Shown here: piece by piece, positions 1-40,138 of the stretch | How the letters are laid out: every line of letters starts with the position of its first letter | Numbering within the stretch: position 1 is the stretch's first letter | From: a virus | Lineage: Duplodnaviria > Caudoviricetes | Virus record (IMG/VR): IMGVR_UViG_3300037440_000207 | Location: 1 to 40,138 of that record | Strand: one strand, 5' to 3' | Length of the DNA stretch: 40,138 nt | Notes under the pieces: generated by a model | Databases searched by the model: none | What the model was told of the DNA's origin: nothing | What the model saw: the letters and a program-made list of their open reading frames with translations, nothing else | Program-made: the position numbers and the translations under genes

Positions 1-127
1 GCACGAGTCGCACGAGTAGCACGAGGTGCACGAGTCGCACGAGGTGCACGAGTCGCACGAGGTGCACGAGTCGCACAAACGGCACGAGTTGCACGAGTTG
101 CACGAGTTGCACGAGTTGCACGAGTTG
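1..127. repeat. Terminal direct repeat (left copy), identical to 40012-40138; circular assembly overlap
   Basis: 1-127 matches 40012-40138, including the distinctive agtagcacgaggtgcacgagtcgcacgaggtg units; 127 is a common assembler k-mer size. Confidence 0.9.
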
Positions 128-156
128 CACGAGGTGCACGAGGTGCACGAGGTGCA
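1..156. repeat. 9-bp tandem array (gcacgagtt-type), left part of array B
   Basis: Tandem gcacgagtt/gcacgagtc/gcacgaggt units read directly. Confidence 0.95.
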
Positions 157-294
157 ATTCCAACAACTGAAATTTGTCACATTCATTTTTTCCCAGTTTG
201 GGTATTTTTCCGCGAATTCTGGGGAAACGCCATTTGCGCTTTTGTCTTCGCGGTTTAAAAATGCTTCGTGAGTGTTAAATATTTGAGTTTTCAT
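1..294 (-). CDS. 5' part of Cys-x-x repeat protein, paralog B; continues across the circular junction into 40011..39355 (about 316 aa in total)
   Basis: ATG at 294 reads MKTQIFNTHEAFLNREDKSANGVSPEFAEKYPNWEKMNVTNFSCWNCTSCTS..., nearly identical to the N-terminus of 2515..3402; joined length 294+657=951 nt stays in frame. Confidence 0.85.
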   Translation of the reverse strand, partial: MKTQIFNTHEAFLNREDKSANGVSPEFAEKYPNWEKMNVTNFSCWNCTSCTSCTSCNSCNSCNSCNSCNSCRLCDSCTSCDSCTSCDSCTSCYSCDSC

Positions 295-297
295 TTT

Positions 298-594
298 TCA
301 CCTTTCAAACATTGAGTTAGAGATTATCGTTAAAATTCTATCGCGAATAAGTTTTGGCGAACGCGTTTCTGTTTTCAAAACGTCGATAATTCCATCAAGC
401 AATTCTCGCGCAAAATAGATTTGCTCACCTAGTAATTCCTCGCGGCGCTCTTGCGTTTCTTCCGCCGCGCTGGTGATCATAACTTCATGGTCTTCGTTAA
501 AAAACCTCACTTCCAATTCGCGCGCGAATTCCTCGGCACCAGCGGGGGCGTGATACGTTAAGACTTCTTGAAATGTAGCGTTGCTTGGTATCAT
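298..594 (-). CDS. Hypothetical acidic protein (98 aa), first gene after a predicted early promoter
   Basis: ORF with AGGAG RBS upstream (plus-strand ctcct at 604-608). Confidence 0.75.
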   Translation of the reverse strand: MIPSNATFQEVLTYHAPAGAEEFARELEVRFFNEDHEVMITSAAEETQERREELLGEQIYFARELLDGIIDVLKTETRSPKLIRDRILTIISNSMFER

Positions 595-627: not shown

Positions 628-688
628 TAAACAACGAAATCAGTATAAGCGAACGAAACGGATAATGTAAGCCTTTTTGCAAATAAAA
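628..688 (-). promoter_or_regulatory. Sigma70-like leftward promoter (TTACAT-17bp-TATACT) with A/T-rich upstream element
   Basis: -35 at 670..665, -10 at 647..642; flanks tttatttgcaaaaag and tttcgttgttta recur at 32989-33050. Confidence 0.65.
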
Positions 689-706
689 AGGCGCCCAAAG
701 GCGCCA
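683..706 (-). terminator. Rho-independent terminator after the DUF2815 gene
   Basis: Minus strand ggcgcc-tttg-ggcgcc followed by ttttta. Confidence 0.6.
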
Positions 707-719
707 AAACGGTCAAATT

Positions 720-1274
720 TTAATCAAGATCATCGAATTCGTCGTCTGAATCCCCGTCCTCGGTGAATTCCGCAAATTCGCTGGCCGCTGACTTGCGGCC
801 GTCCATCCGCTCCCCTTTTCCGCCGCGTAGCATCAGGTTATTGAAACCGGCCGCGACCCCTGGTTTACCGCCATCTTTGCTGTCGAAGGAGTAAAGCGAT
901 ATCGACACAGTGAAAACCGCGCCGCTGTAGCACTGTTCGTCAATTTCAACATCAGTGGCGGCCTTACCGAATCGGTTTACAATTCCAGGTGGGTTGCCAG
1001 AATTGGCGTTTAGAAAATACATCCCTTCGTATTCGTCACCGTCGCGTTCTTCATCACCGTCGCGTAACGGGAGTTTGAGGCGCGCCGCTTTCACTGCATC
1101 CCCAAAAGCTGCCTTAGCAATTCGGGTTTGCGCGGCTTTAAGTTTTTTAGCTAATTCGCTATCCTTGGGGATTAGCGGTTGAATTTGGTATTTTTCATGC
1201 TTATTCGTTTTTGTCGCAAATACAAAAGAGCAACGAACGTTATTTAAAATAATAGTTTCAGATACGCGTTTCAT
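720..1274 (-). CDS. DUF2815-family single-stranded DNA-binding protein
   Basis: NVRCSF, LPLRDGDEERD, YSGA, GVAAGFNN, GERMDG motifs; acidic C-terminal tail; next to DUF2800. Confidence 0.9.
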   Translation of the reverse strand: MKRVSETIILNNVRCSFVFATKTNKHEKYQIQPLIPKDSELAKKLKAAQTRIAKAAFGDAVKAARLKLPLRDGDEERDGDEYEGMYFLNANSGNPPGIVNRFGKAATDVEIDEQCYSGAVFTVSISLYSFDSKDGGKPGVAAGFNNLMLRGGKGERMDGRKSAASEFAEFTEDGDSDDEFDDLD

Positions 1275-1276
1275 TT

Positions 1277-2518
1277 TTAAAGTTCCTCGGTTTCGATATA
1301 ATTTTCAAATTCAGTTTCTGCGTTTGCTCGCGCTGGTGGTCGCTTATCGGACACTGGTACAAGTGTTAATTTTCCGTCTGGTTTTTCGGTGATTTCCTCC
1401 ATTATGGTTGCAAATAGTTTTTTGTCTGACAATTTTGATTTTAGCGTTTTTTCAATGGCGCCTAGTCCTTTTGGTTTCCGCTCATATAAATCATTTTCTT
1501 CTAAATGGTCTAACAGCGGCGACGTTATTTCATCAAACGCATTCGCAGTAAATCGGCGGGTTGCTCGCCCGTTTACTAACTTGTAATCACTGGTAAATTC
1601 ATCACTACCGCTAATTAATGATTCAAAAATGTAATGTTCAACCGCTGCTAAAAAATCAATGATTAGTTTTTTGTTATGCATTATCTGCAATTTTTGCTTA
1701 GCAGTTGTTGCCTCCAGTTCCACACAAATAAAATCGGCAAATTCACTCATTAAAGTTTCTTCCGCTTTTTTCAACATTTGCGGGCAATGTGCTTTTGCGG
1801 GACAAAAGCGGCACCCTTCTTCGCTAACTTTTAGCGGCGCGTCTGGTTCCAACGTTGCACGCGCTGCTGGCAATAATTCGTTATTTTCCCAATCTTGTAA
1901 ATCATCCAACGATATTTGCCAACTATCAATGTGATGTAATCTCGGTTGCGCAATGGTGATTTTTATTTCTGCGTATTTGTCCTTATCTTTTATCATGTAC
2001 GCAGTTGCAGCGGCATAGCAAAGCGCTTGAAAATTGTCAGCCGCATCGACCTTAACGCCTCGCCCATGCTTGTAGTCGATTACCTCAATTTTAACAATTT
2101 TGCCAGTTTTAATATCTCGAAATATTAAAATCACGTCAGCAGTGCCACCGTCTAATCCTGGGATTTTATGGTGTTTTAGACTGACTTTTTGCTCAACAAT
2201 TATTTCGCAAGTTTGACCGCTAAACGCCGCGCACTCAATTTGTTCGCGCACATAATCAAGCGACTGCTGTACCGCGTTAGTCATTTCCTCATTAACGATA
2301 AAAGTAAAACCTTCTTCGATAAAAACTGCACCTATAAAGCTGTCCGCGTTTTTGGCAGTCACTAAACACTGTTCGTGGATGTGATGCGCTACAGTGCCCT
2401 CAGCGGTGTATCTATTTGGTTTTTCAACTTTGCGGAATTTATCTATAAACGCAACACTACCTGGACAAGTTGCCCAGCGCTTCCCGCTGGATGGGGATAA
2501 TTTAGCATGACTGCTCAT
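1277..2518 (-). CDS. DUF2800-family Cas4-like PD-(D/E)XK nuclease
   Basis: HAKLSPSS..RW..CPGS, EGTVAH, GTAD, IDYKHGRG, QPR, CRFCPAK..C motifs; ATG at 2518 overlaps the upstream stop (ATGA). Confidence 0.9.
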   Translation of the reverse strand: MSSHAKLSPSSGKRWATCPGSVAFIDKFRKVEKPNRYTAEGTVAHHIHEQCLVTAKNADSFIGAVFIEEGFTFIVNEEMTNAVQQSLDYVREQIECAAFSGQTCEIIVEQKVSLKHHKIPGLDGGTADVILIFRDIKTGKIVKIEVIDYKHGRGVKVDAADNFQALCYAAATAYMIKDKDKYAEIKITIAQPRLHHIDSWQISLDDLQDWENNELLPAARATLEPDAPLKVSEEGCRFCPAKAHCPQMLKKAEETLMSEFADFICVELEATTAKQKLQIMHNKKLIIDFLAAVEHYIFESLISGSDEFTSDYKLVNGRATRRFTANAFDEITSPLLDHLEENDLYERKPKGLGAIEKTLKSKLSDKKLFATIMEEITEKPDGKLTLVPVSDKRPPARANAETEFENYIETEEL

Positions 2519-3402
2519 TTCTGTTCTTTCTCCCATCCAGCAAACTCAAGAATTGATTTCTTCGCAATTTCGTTATCGGTATAAAAATCGCGAAACTCAG
2601 GGAATCGAGCAGATGACACTTTATAAATACACATTGCGGCGAAAGGTGTTGACGTTGCTTTTTCAAGCGCTTTGCCTTGTTCTCCTGCTAATTCGACAAC
2701 CCATCCTGCGCGGCAATGCGTTGTGCCGCACGGGGAATGCCATTGTGACATTTCCAGAGCATTTATTTGCTCTGCTATTTTTTGATGAATATTTTCAATA
2801 ACTGGAACTTCCGGCATATTTTCGCCGGTTTTGTTTTTGCACAAACGGCACGAGTCGCACAAACGGCACGAGTCGCACGAGTCGCACGAGTTGCACAAAC
2901 GGCACGAGTTGCACGAGTAGCACGAGCGGCACGAGTTGCACGAGTCGCACGAGTCGCACGAGTCGCACGAGTAGCACGAGTTGCACAAATGGCACGAGCG
3001 GCACGAGTTGCACGAGTCGCACGAGTCGCACGAGTCGCACGAGTTGCACGAGTAGCACGAGCGGCACGAGTTGCACGAGTCGCACGAGTTGCACGAGTTG
3101 CACCAGTTGCACCAGTTGCACCAGTTGCACCAGTTGCACGAGTTGCACGAGTTGCACGAGTTGCACGAGCGGCACCAGTTGCACGAGTTGCACGAGTTGC
3201 ACGAGTTGCACGAGCGGCACCAGTTGCACGAGTTGCACGAGTTGCACGAGTTGCACGAGGTGCAATTCCAACAGCTGGAATTTGTCGAATTCATTTGCTC
3301 CCAGTTTGGGTATTTTTCCACGAATTCCGGGGAAACGCCGTTTGCGCTTTTATCTTCGCGGTTTAAAAATTCTTCGTAAGTGTTAAATATTTGAGTTTTC
3401 AT
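2515..3402 (-). CDS. Cys-x-x repeat protein, paralog A (295 aa): 43-aa N-terminus, about 49 Cxx triplets, 105-aa C-terminal WH..CGTTHCRAGW domain
   Basis: ATGA coupling at both ends; unique N- and C-terminal regions are in frame across the array and conserved in paralog B. Confidence 0.9.
   Translation of the reverse strand: MKTQIFNTYEEFLNREDKSANGVSPEFVEKYPNWEQMNSTNSSCWNCTSCNSCNSCNSCNWCRSCNSCNSCNSCNWCRSCNSCNSCNSCNWCNWCNWCNWCNSCNSCDSCNSCRSCYSCNSCDSCDSCDSCNSCRSCHLCNSCYSCDSCDSCDSCNSCRSCYSCNSCRLCNSCDSCDSCRLCDSCRLCKNKTGENMPEVPVIENIHQKIAEQINALEMSQWHSPCGTTHCRAGWVVELAGEQGKALEKATSTPFAAMCIYKVSSARFPEFRDFYTDNEIAKKSILEFAGWEKEQK
2839..3264. repeat. 9-bp tandem array A (coding unit TGC AAC TCG and variants), about 47 units
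   Basis: Read directly; higher-order 45-bp blocks (CNS CNS CNS CNW CRS). Confidence 0.95.
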
Positions 3403-3596: not shown

Positions 3597-3933
3597 TTTG
3601 TATCGCCTCCAAAATTTCACTCTTTTGTTCTTGCGTGAATTGATTCCAATCTCTAATTTGCTCGACTGTTCTGCCACATCCCCTGCAAATGTTATCGCCG
3701 GTCGAAGTGGTACAAATACCCACGCATGGATGCGCATTCGGTTTCTTCCAGATCAAATATTCCCGCGTTGGATTTTCAGTTAATAATTTTGCTATTTTGC
3801 AAGACAAGTCGTTCAATGAGATTTTTTCAATGTTAATGCAATACCGCCGTTGGTCTAAGTTGTAGACAACATATTCGTCTTTCAAAACTGCCGCGTATTT
3901 GTAGCAAACAACGGAATCGCGCGGCTCACTCAT
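3583..3933 (-). CDS. DUF1289 domain protein (Cys cluster, putative metal or Fe-S binding) with N-terminal extension
   Basis: PCVGIC...ICRGCGRT..QI.DW....QEQK motif; ATG 3933 overlaps the upstream stop. Confidence 0.8.
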   Translation of the reverse strand: MSEPRDSVVCYKYAAVLKDEYVVYNLDQRRYCINIEKISLNDLSCKIAKLLTENPTREYLIWKKPNAHPCVGICTTSTGDNICRGCGRTVEQIRDWNQFTQEQKSEILEAIQNGTI

Positions 3934-4115
3934 TTCGGCGAGTTCCACTTTTCAGTATTTTTCGGATTTATTTTTAACTTTTCGCGCAACACGTCAAAAT
4001 CTAATTCGCGGCTAGGGTTTTGAATTTTTCCGCCGCGCGCTAAAAATTCTCGCGTTTGAATTTCAATTTCACGCTGTTGTTTAATGCGTTCGGTAGGAAT
4101 TGTTGGGCGGGACAT
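3930..4115 (-). CDS. Small protein with SutA-like RNA polymerase-binding motif
   Basis: REIEIQTREFLARGGKIQ resembles the conserved SutA core (EFLARGGKV); AAGGA RBS. Confidence 0.65.
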   Translation of the reverse strand: MSRPTIPTERIKQQREIEIQTREFLARGGKIQNPSRELDFDVLREKLKINPKNTEKWNSPK

Positions 4116-14318: not shown

Positions 14319-15446
14319 ATGTTTTTTCGTGACCGCCTGGGCATTAATTCAAAGCGCACATACACCGACGAAGGTTATTTGGTTGTTCCGGGCAGAATCG
14401 GCAGAATTGGGATTCAGGATTATTTAGCTTCTGAAATGGGAGTGAGCGATAGAAATCCAACGGATGTTATACGGGTTTACCGCCCGCAAGAAGAAGTATT
14501 TAAAGATGATTCCATAAACTCTTTTGCAAATAAACCTGTAACCGATAATCATCCCCCTGAACTGGTTAACGCCAATAATGCCAAACAGTACAGCGTTGGC
14601 CATAGCGGCCCGGAAATAACCCGCGATGGCATGTTTGCGGAAGCACTCCTATATATCACTGATGCTAATTCAATTAAAAATATCGAAAGCGGTAAAGTTG
14701 AATTGTCAAATGGCTATTCGTGTGATATAGAATGGAAATCCGGTATTACCGAAGATGGCGAGAGTTATGATGCTATTCAGCGGAATATAAAAGGCAATCA
14801 CATTGCTATTGTTGCAAAAGGCCGCGCTGGTCCATCTTGCAAATTAGCGGACAATTCACCAGAAACCGAGGCAAAACAAATGCTAATCACCATTGATAGC
14901 GTGCAATACGAAGTGTCGGAACAAGTCGCGCAAGCGCACCAAAAAGTGCAGGCGCGACTAAATGACGCGGAAGCGGAAGCAGAAAAGAAAGACGAAGAGC
15001 TAAAAGAGAAAGACGAAGAAATGGCAAAAAAAGACGAAGATCTAAAAGAGAAAGAAGAAGAAATGGCAAAAAAAGAAGAGGAAATGAAGGTTGCAACTGA
15101 TTCCGCCATTGAATATCGAATCACTTTGATTGCAGATGCTCAAAAACTCATTTCTAATTTTGACTGGAAAGGTAAAACCAATCAAATCATTATTAGCGAA
15201 GTTGTTTCCGCTAAATGCCCAGCTATTCAAATGGATTCCGCTTCTCCTGATTATTTAAAAGCTCGATTCGATTTGCTTGTCGAAAATGTTACTAATGACT
15301 CGCAAGCAGATATAAATAACCATTTTCGCAAACAAGCATCAAAAGTAAACGACGGTAACGTCGTGGATACACGTTCGCCCAGCGTTATTGCTCGGGATGA
15401 AATGATCGCTCGCAATAAAAAACTTTGGAAAAAGGAGGCTAACTAA
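14319..15446 (+). CDS. Prohead protease/scaffold (DUF2213 family)
   Basis: RIGIQDY, VYRPQEEVF, PVTDNHP, ELSNGY, NHIAIVAKGRAG; C-terminal KDEE coiled-coil repeats (alternative GTG start 14304). Confidence 0.9.
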   Translation: MFFRDRLGINSKRTYTDEGYLVVPGRIGRIGIQDYLASEMGVSDRNPTDVIRVYRPQEEVFKDDSINSFANKPVTDNHPPELVNANNAKQYSVGHSGPEITRDGMFAEALLYITDANSIKNIESGKVELSNGYSCDIEWKSGITEDGESYDAIQRNIKGNHIAIVAKGRAGPSCKLADNSPETEAKQMLITIDSVQYEVSEQVAQAHQKVQARLNDAEAEAEKKDEELKEKDEEMAKKDEDLKEKEEEMAKKEEEMKVATDSAIEYRITLIADAQKLISNFDWKGKTNQIIISEVVSAKCPAIQMDSASPDYLKARFDLLVENVTNDSQADINNHFRKQASKVNDGNVVDTRSPSVIARDEMIARNKKLWKKEAN

Positions 15447-38726: not shown

Positions 38727-39185
38727 TTAAAACCTATAGCGCAAGCCGATCATATCTAAGCCATAATTCGGCGAATGAATTCCAGCGCTTGAAAAGTGCA
38801 TATATTCTATTTGTACTTTTCCCAGTTCAATGCCCGCGCCAAGTCTGAAATTAACAGCGCCGCCAACCAAATGTTCGGCACCCCAAACGTGCGCAATACC
38901 GGTTCGTGCATAAACGTTTTTAAATTGAAATTTTCGCGATAGTGACGCAATCTGGATTGTTTCTCGCCGATAGGTTTTTGTATCAGGTTGCGTAAATGCG
39001 AGCTGTACTTCCCATTGATCTTGTTGTAATCCAATTTCAATGCCAGGGTTGTCAAGATTTACGCCATGTTTATATACGCCAATAAACGGTTGCGCGGCTT
39101 CGGAAAATCCGCACCATAGAACGGAAGCGCTTATAATCACGAACAATATCGTATTGATGATTATTGCATTTTTAACAATTTTCAT
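38727..39185 (-). CDS. PagL-like lipid A 3-O-deacylase (outer-membrane beta-barrel)
   Basis: Signal peptide; amphipathic beta strands; C-terminal YMHFSSAGIHSPNYGLDMIGLRYRF matches the PagL HxS(N)AG..PN.G motif with terminal Phe. Confidence 0.8.
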   Translation of the reverse strand: MKIVKNAIIINTILFVIISASVLWCGFSEAAQPFIGVYKHGVNLDNPGIEIGLQQDQWEVQLAFTQPDTKTYRRETIQIASLSRKFQFKNVYARTGIAHVWGAEHLVGGAVNFRLGAGIELGKVQIEYMHFSSAGIHSPNYGLDMIGLRYRF

Positions 39186-39354: not shown

Positions 39355-40138
39355 TCATTTCTGTTCTTTCTCCCATTCAGCAAACTCAAGAATTGATTTC
39401 TTCGCAATTTCGTTATTGCTATAAAAATCGCGAAACTCGGGGAATCGCGCAGATGACGCTTTATAAATACACATCGCGGCGAAAGGTGTTGATGTTTCTT
39501 TTTCAAGTGCTTTGCCTTTTTCTCCTGCTAATTCAACAACCCATCCGGCGCGGCAATGCGTTGTGCCGCATGGGGAATGCCATTGTGACATTTCCAGAGC
39601 GTGTATATTATTTGCAACTTTTTGATGAATATTTTCAATAATTGGAATTTCCGGCATATTTTCGCCGGTTTTGTTTTCGCACAAATGGCACAAGTGGCAC
39701 AAACGGCACGAGTCGCACGAGACGCACGAGTTGCACGAGTTGCACGAGCTGCACGAGCTGCACGAGTCGCACAAACGGCACGAGTCGCACAAACGGCACG
39801 AGTCGCACGAGTCGCACGAGTTGCACGAGTTGCACGAGTTGCACGAGTTGCACGAGTTGCACGAGTTGCACGAGCTGCACGAGCTGCACGAGTCGCACAA
39901 ACGGCACGAGTCGCACAAACGGCACGAGTCGCACGAGTTGCACGAGTTGCACGAGTTGCACGAGTTGCACGAGTTGCACGAGTTGCACGAGTTGCACGAG
40001 TTGCACAAACGGCACGAGTCGCACGAGTAGCACGAGGTGCACGAGTCGCACGAGGTGCACGAGTCGCACGAGGTGCACGAGTCGCACAAACGGCACGAGT
40101 TGCACGAGTTGCACGAGTTGCACGAGTTGCACGAGTTG
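39355..40138 (-). CDS. 3' part of Cys-x-x repeat protein, paralog B (starts at 294 across the junction)
   Basis: 39355-39680 differs from 2515-2840 at about 25 of 326 positions by manual count; same CGTTHCRAGW domain. Confidence 0.88.
   Translation of the reverse strand, partial: NSCNSCNSCNSCNSCRLCDSCTSCDSCTSCDSCTSCYSCDSCRLCNSCNSCNSCNSCNSCNSCNSCNSCDSCRLCDSCRLCDSCSSCSSCNSCNSCNSCNSCNSCNSCDSCDSCRLCDSCRLCDSCSSCSSCNSCNSCVSCDSCRLCHLCHLCENKTGENMPEIPIIENIHQKVANNIHALEMSQWHSPCGTTHCRAGWVVELAGEKGKALEKETSTPFAAMCIYKASSARFPEFRDFYSNNEIAKKSILEFAEWEKEQK
39679..40138. repeat. 9-bp tandem array B (right part)
   Basis: Read directly; duplicated higher-order block CDS CRL CDS CRL CDS CSS CSS CNS CNS. Confidence 0.95.
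40012..40138. repeat. Terminal direct repeat (right copy of 1-127)
   Basis: Identical to 1-127. Confidence 0.9.

Follow-up and report, generated by a model that had tools for sequence, protein, structure and literature searches.

Two copies of a cysteine-every-third-residue gene in a circular phage genome, and the family of the His/Cys domain to which the array is fused

What a phage might gain from a protein in which every third residue is cysteine is the question raised by a gene in the viral record IMGVR_UViG_3300037440_000207 (Duplodnaviria; Caudoviricetes), whose 40,138 nucleotides constitute the window analyzed here. The record represented a complete circular 40-kb phage genome with direct terminal repeats (127-bp terminal overlap). 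The runs carrying contigs of the phage were sediment metagenomes according to their run labels, and its capsid protein was approximately 39% identical to capsid proteins of enterobacterial phages. Features of the gene, its second copy, and the genes between them are listed in Table 1.

Table 1. Positions in the window of the two gene copies, their parts, and the intervening genes
Feature	Position	Strand	Type
Copy A gene, 295 aa: cap, 49 Cxx triplets, and His/Cys domain	2515..3402	-	ORF
Copy A N-terminal cap, 43 aa, family cap type 1 (conserved), confidently folded	3274..3402	-	
Copy A array, 49 nine-base units, rare C-x-S register	2833..3273	-	
Copy A linker and conserved helical C-terminal domain (phrog_31265)	2518..2832	-	
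W-H-x2-C-G-T-T-H-C-R-A-G-W motif, residues 221-234, candidate His/Cys metal site	2701..2742	-	
Copy B 5' part: cap (166-294) and first 18 triplets	1..294	-	
Copy B 3' part: remaining array (including the 127-bp terminal duplicate) and C-terminal domain (39358-39672)	39355..40138	-	
DUF2800 Cas4-like exonuclease, start overlapping the copy A stop	1277..2518	-	
Enc34-type ssDNA-binding/annealing protein, between copies A and B	720..1274	-	
98-aa gene without assigned function, directly upstream of copy B	298..594	-	

The original prediction described about 49 consecutive C-x-x triplets between a unique N-terminus and a domain rich in His and Cys. Exactly 49 triplets were found in this gene (copy A), at residues 44-190, with 43 aa preceding the first Cys and 105 aa following the array. 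They comprised CNS (18), CDS (10), CNW (6), CRS (5), CYS (3), CRL (3), and one each of CWN, CTS, CHL, and CKN. Every triplet type was encoded by one fixed 9-mer, with TGC in 48 of the 49 Cys codons and TCG in all 37 third-position Ser codons, and a 9-bp tandem array was detected by TRF at 2848-3264 (score 547). Cys made up one third of the array and 17.6% of the whole protein; Trp and Tyr were also present in the array. The whole protein had no match in Pfam, including the pentapeptide repeats (PF00805), which sister proteins do match.

In shuffled windows, the longest Cxx run was 2-3 triplets (50 of 50), and the rest of the real window contained no run longer than 3. That the Cys frame is the real one was borne out across the family, in which the cap and the C-terminal domain share it; the domain lay in another frame in 2 of the 132 closed cap-bearing ORFs of relatives, and in the phage FL-1 besides. 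No frame-breaking indels were listed in the contigs of 4 runs, nor in those of 3 runs, where the contigs do not span the arrays. The exact triplet counts of both copies likewise derive from a short-read assembly, as no public contig spans either array.

The second copy (copy B), absent from the original prediction, was found across the origin of the circular record (294->1/40011->39355, minus strand), and TRF detected a second 9-bp array crossing the window ends. Closure of the circle gave a 316-aa paralog with 56 triplets as assembled. Compared with copy A, 37 of 43 cap residues and 93 of 105 domain residues were identical. The two copies formed direct repeats, with identity at 117 of 129 bases in the caps and 294 of 318 in the domains, and flanked the genes for the DUF2800 exonuclease, the ssDNA-binding protein (SSB), and the 98-aa protein. 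In a sister phage (L001), copy B was present in the same place and gene order. In addition, one sequencing run (X1) contained two distinct domain contigs at depths of 35.2 and 35.9, the single-copy flanks having depths of 33.6-39. An assembly artefact was ruled out for copy B by these two contigs at single-copy depth and by the copy in L001, although the pairing of cap to domain across both arrays rests on the assembly and not on spanning contigs. As a separate observation, the 3-kb cassette between the direct-repeat copies could in principle loop out.

These data also bear on a role at the DNA level, in which the arrays would serve as a recombination hot spot or contingency locus and the copies could excise or amplify the exonuclease-SSB cassette. 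The direct repeats around a 2.2-kb cassette and the highly homogenized units agree with such a role, and a second run (X2) listed one domain contig where X1 had two, as gene conversion would give. However, unit DNA differed among lineages with the cysteine frame kept, most loci had a single motif copy, and both copies stood at single-copy depth in X1; we consider this role quite improbable.

The original prediction held that the 9-bp unit would allow the array to change length in frame. Array length was indeed variable and in frame, with 49, 56, and 29 triplets in copy A, copy B, and L001, respectively, and 4 to 53 triplets in closed arrays of the family, with no preferred length modulo 2-6. 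Triplet order was not periodic, the values at lags 1-12 being 0.99-1.02 of those expected (156 arrays). Because order is aperiodic and length has no preferred modulus, a precise binding surface fits poorly with the array.

Units were homogenized at the DNA level, each array using a single codon for Cys and a single one for Ser, and several amino-acid variants persisted at the two non-Cys positions. Differences between units at the two non-Cys codons comprised 770 amino-acid-changing and 23 silent ones, compared with an expectation of 26% silent; the count covered 173 homogenized arrays of 203, with 30 diverged arrays left out, and its bias is inflated by related arrays and by counting multi-base codon changes once. 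Ser and Cys codons differed by lineage, and a palette of Asp, Gly, Arg, Ser, and Tyr was common to lineages. In the simplest reading, slippage and gene conversion would sweep silent changes through an array, and selection would keep a mixed surface. Most of the variable codons were one or two changes from AAC, from which the idea of a diversity-generating retroelement target arose; this was ruled out by the absence of PF00078 (reverse transcriptase) matches in the complete record.

Across 231 arrays, Cys occupied 5,549 of the 5,591 positions in register, by a method that favors high values, and Ser was its commonest substitute (23 of 42). The C-x-S register of the window was found in 7 of 203 arrays, compared with 160 of 203 for C-S-x. 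The lineage of the window was therefore unusual in that Ser and Asn/Asp were swapped in order relative to most of the family, and turn geometry is probably only loosely constrained, because this order is reversed in the window's array.

The original prediction left room for the C-terminal domain to be a family already characterized. Its only match was phrog_31265, to which no function is assigned (E 8.6e-26 for copy A and 3.1e-27 for copy B); no match was found in Pfam, NCBIfam, or PADLOC, and a domain profile found no PDB sequence with E < 0.4. The domain had 1,283 relatives among 50%-identity representatives, including 417 at E 1e-10. The motif W-H..C-x-T-T-H-C-R-A-G-W was near-invariant, occurring in 312 of the 318 proteins collected, with the locus searches themselves selecting on part of it and the search giving 1,283 relatives free of that selection. 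With two His and two Cys in a nine-residue stretch, the motif may form a zinc site. AlphaFold2 predicted a confident small helical fold for the domain (pLDDT 90). Comparison of this fold with 48,161 PDB chains gave no clear match (best Z 4.1, rmsd 3.4, 80 aligned), the best Foldseek E value was 2.4, and the viral structure library contained one close relative of the domain (A0A1P8VWG3, no name). Fold searches with the full-length model were dominated by the C-terminal domain and gave nothing clear.

The original prediction tentatively placed a similar C-terminal domain behind pentapeptide repeats in other phages, and this was found to hold when the domain was searched for and the preceding repeats were catalogued. 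Among the best 80 of 390 viral loci, some of them near-duplicates, the domain followed Cxx arrays in 48, pentapeptide repeats in 28, and other or truncated N-termini in 4; among genome loci, which came from many phyla, the corresponding numbers for the best 80 of 95 were 32, 40, and 8. DUF4116, a YdcK solenoid, and further repeats likewise preceded it. The closest known systems were proteins of the Ralstonia phages RSK1 (ORF34; BAO04699.1), RsoP1IDN, and RpY1, which have the same His/Cys domain (50-54% identical; phrog_31265), the same cap-repeat-domain layout, and a location in an accessory region of small genes, but carry pentapeptide repeats instead of Cys-x-x and are annotated as 'putative pentapeptide repeat proteins'. 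In the searches made, no function was found for these relatives beyond that annotation. Some proteins (P0306-P0312) showed a three-part fusion of Cys_rich_CPCC (PF14206), pentapeptide repeats, and the family C-terminal domain. Further unrelated repeat types preceded the domain at L143, L155, L135, P0128, and P0316, including 12-residue helical-looking and leucine-rich-like repeats.

A quickly built tree of 167 domains, based on 93 columns and with many weak forks, required a single change between Cxx and pentapeptide repeats (140 rows) and seven changes between the two types of cap (54 rows). Rampant swapping of rod types was ruled out by the single change, because of which the main rod swap appears to be old and not frequent.

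In searches based on the cap, the domain ended 46 of the 69 closed ORFs with cap type 1 and 59 of the 63 with cap type 2; another 30 cap-bearing ORFs, outside these counts, ran off their contigs. Most of the ORFs without the domain consisted of a cap, an array, and a short tail. The rod may work alone, because the domain was missing in 23 of the 69 closed cap-1 ORFs. Stand-alone cap-plus-Cxx genes without the C-terminal domain occurred as tandem pairs at two loci (L175 and L235), and at another (L301:1501-2040) cap type 2 and a Cxx array were joined to a different, unnamed C-terminal domain. The cultured Vibrio phage 1.238.A encodes the same cap and Cxx array but no C-terminal domain (NVP1238A_68; AUR97317.1). 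The cultured Flavobacterium phage FL-1 (KY421186.2; L083:3497-4313) also has the same cap and array, with a frameshift within the C-terminal motif and the array annotated in an Ala-Pro frame. No study of the family members in 1.238.A or FL-1 was found.

The exchange of rods bears directly on whether the array is merely an inert module for spacing, stability, or solubility, with only the C-terminal domain functional and the residue mix simply preventing the aggregation of perfect repeats. Unrelated repeat types substituting for one another, lengths of 4 to 53 triplets in closed ORFs, and a small polar palette (D, G, R, S, Y) in random order are all compatible with a spacer, but it does not explain why stand-alone cap-plus-array genes are retained, sometimes as tandem pairs, and we regard it as unlikely.

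Alternatively, the array may act as the metal or thiol sink that the original prediction raised, in which the 49 cysteines would bind Zn, Cu, or Fe in bulk in the manner of metallothioneins, folded or not, and would buffer metals or oxidants or starve metal-dependent host enzymes during infection. Metallothioneins are small and lack aromatic residues. The phage array resembles them in that one third of it is Cys; the phage protein differs in being much longer (295 aa) and strictly periodic and in containing aromatic residues as well as a folded cap and a globular domain. Capacity-driven selection would be expected to maintain Cys in register, as counted above, and to tolerate any length and a seemingly random order, and stand-alone arrays exist, one of them in a cultured phage. 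However, approximately half of the family has cysteine-poor pentapeptide or DUF4116 repeats on the same domain, and the conserved caps and the lasting variety at non-Cys positions point to a folded surface, which leaves a sink doubtful.

As for the fold, the array probably forms a cysteine-cored beta-solenoid with a period-3 geometry like that of insect antifreeze proteins. In the AlphaFold2 model, the cap and first triplets had pLDDT > 85 up to residue 50, and residues 69-173 had pLDDT < 50, the rod not being modelled; AlphaFold2 is reported to over-predict solenoids for repeats (PMC11795689). In each 12-residue coil of the beetle antifreeze beta-helix, every third residue (C, S, C, and A) points inward (PMC8038014). 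It is this pattern, together with the replacement of Cys by Ser, the exchange of solenoids before the same domain, and an alignment with PDB entry 1EZG, that argues for a solenoid; in the alignment, the protein of Vibrio phage 1.238.A matched 1EZG ungapped over 64 residues and in register, at a non-significant E value of 0.23. The likeness to TmAFP (PDB 1EZG; InterPro IPR016133) lies in a small inward residue at every third position (PMC8038014). In contrast to TmAFP, the phage array is built on a 9-bp unit rather than on a 12-residue repeat, uses Cys at every inward position, and lacks both a Thr ladder (one Thr, no TCT) and a four-triplet periodicity, and the phage protein has no evident signal peptide, because of which disulfides are unlikely in the array. 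The likeness is best taken as an analogy of geometry rather than as demonstrated homology.

DNA mimics such as Ocr, MfpA, and Qnr have a strongly acidic surface. The suggestion in the original prediction that the array might mimic DNA was not supported, as 10 acidic and 9 basic residues were counted in the array of copy A. A role in DNA mimicry, as for Ocr, MfpA, or Qnr, or in ice binding might be proposed on the grounds that sister proteins have pentapeptide repeats, that gene 68 of the cultured Vibrio phage 1.238.A is auto-annotated as 'insect antifreeze protein', and that the top ESM Atlas cluster is automatically named insect antifreeze (score 0.88, a lead only; all ESM Atlas matches scored < 0.9). 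Given a net charge of about -1, one Thr and no TCT motif in copy A, and a family median charge of -0.12 per triplet, both roles are very improbable.

The three-part anatomy, the two copies in this genome, the family-wide exchange of rod types, and the in-frame change in length are features of the sequences themselves. The reading that we prefer, at a rough probability of 0.45, is that of a host-directed accessory protein, in which a likely zinc-binding effector domain is carried on a stiff, cysteine-cored, reshuffled rod. In this mechanism, a small cap would be followed by Cys-x-x triplets wound into a narrow beta-solenoid rod with the cysteines inside, and the conserved helical C-terminal domain would likely bind a metal ion and act on a host target. 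Slippage and gene conversion would reshuffle the units, selection would preserve both the register of the cysteines and a polar surface of mixed residues, and the composition of the rod, rather than its exact order, would matter. The domain together with the stiff, variable rod would form the working part, directed during infection at a host protein or defense system. An improbable extension is that the Cys-x-x rod is itself a metalloprotein, whose hollow beta-solenoid core would hold a continuous metal-thiolate chain, extendable triplet by triplet and sequestering metals or redox equivalents from host defenses, with the zinc domain of unmatched fold as effector.

Nucleotide-sponge anti-defense proteins of the Tad1/Tad2/Acb2 type are homo-oligomers with the ligand pocket between subunits. 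The family described here belongs with phage repeat-rod-plus-domain proteins. Another protein of that kind, the pentapeptide protein 24_60 of Vibrio phage 24, counters the Sucellos defense (10.1101/2024.07.02.601686). This probable anti-Sucellos protein also joins a phage repeat rod to a small C-terminal domain, its rod being of pentapeptide repeats (same source). Its C-terminal domain is unrelated to the one described here (hhalign probability 1.5%; phrog_37032, not phrog_31265), and the alternative C-terminal domain at L301 did not match that of 24_60 either. The anti-defense phenotype of 24_60 thus lends support to the proposed role by analogy alone.

Regarding the neighborhood, the stop of copy A overlaps the DUF2800 start (ATGA), which the original prediction took as translational coupling. 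The start of copy A overlaps the stop of the preceding gene, and the stop of copy B overlaps another short ORF; because two other junctions of these genes also overlap, ATGA overlaps reflect operon packing. A specific partnership with DUF2800 or with the Cys-rich DUF1289 gene was not supported, since neither was detected at any of 159 related loci by tblastn, a search of limited sensitivity over many short loci, and the ATGA overlap is not special. The DUF1289 gene, predicted to be close, was two genes upstream but not adjacent. Recombination genes (YqaJ, RecT, ERF, SSB, and similar) were found near 55 of the 159 loci, as in the window, including 34 of 77 loci of >= 8 kb and 17 of 79 Cxx-type loci; these counts come from family loci alone, with no random-phage control set. 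The neighborhood fits an accessory gene of a recombination or early region.

A promoter and terminator scan of the window gave totals near chance. Within it, a terminator-like hairpin followed the SSB gene and a promoter-like site preceded the 98-aa gene (642-705, minus strand), an arrangement which suggests, with scan totals near chance, that copy B may start its own transcription unit. In run X2, the SSB gene of a related strain was densely substituted at 784-955, with many changes three bases apart, which suggests an exchanged allele. Shortly downstream of copy B, a PagL-like outer-membrane barrel gene was identified (38727-39185, minus strand; PF09411, E 1.2e-8); it was kept in L001, and its product might modify lipid A or the surface receptors of the host. 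A 61-aa protein encoded in the operon of copy A (3930-4115, minus strand) matched the SutA RNA-polymerase-binding domain just below the cut-off (26.5 vs 29.3 bits) and is a possible host transcription modulator. Elsewhere in the genome, 33606-37733 (minus strand) encoded a dCTP deaminase, a YfbR-like HD nucleotidase, DUF3310, an unnamed 182-aa gene, and what we take to be a divergent gene of the DNA-polymerase type, whose sole Pfam match was weak; judged from these matches, it is a putative nucleotide-metabolism or DNA-modification block. Further, a 21/42-bp lysine/glutamate-rich tandem repeat was present in a 380-aa head gene (14984-15086, plus strand).

Overall, the domain and its rods form a large, apparently undescribed phage family, with no curated model and no clear fold match; no description of it was found in the literature searched, most subscription papers being outside reach. 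Annotation tends to hide the family. The database entry for the gene of copy A (P0046) comprised only the last 100 residues, the array of FL-1 was annotated in a different frame, and the 85 of 318 collected proteins shorter than 135 aa have possibly lost their arrays in gene calling, as P0046 has. A pure period-3 cysteine solenoid, if true, would be a new natural scaffold. The combination of silent uniformity and amino-acid variety suggests ongoing selection during infection, and, as members of the family occur in cultured phages whose hosts are harmless, the questions of structure and metal can be tested now.
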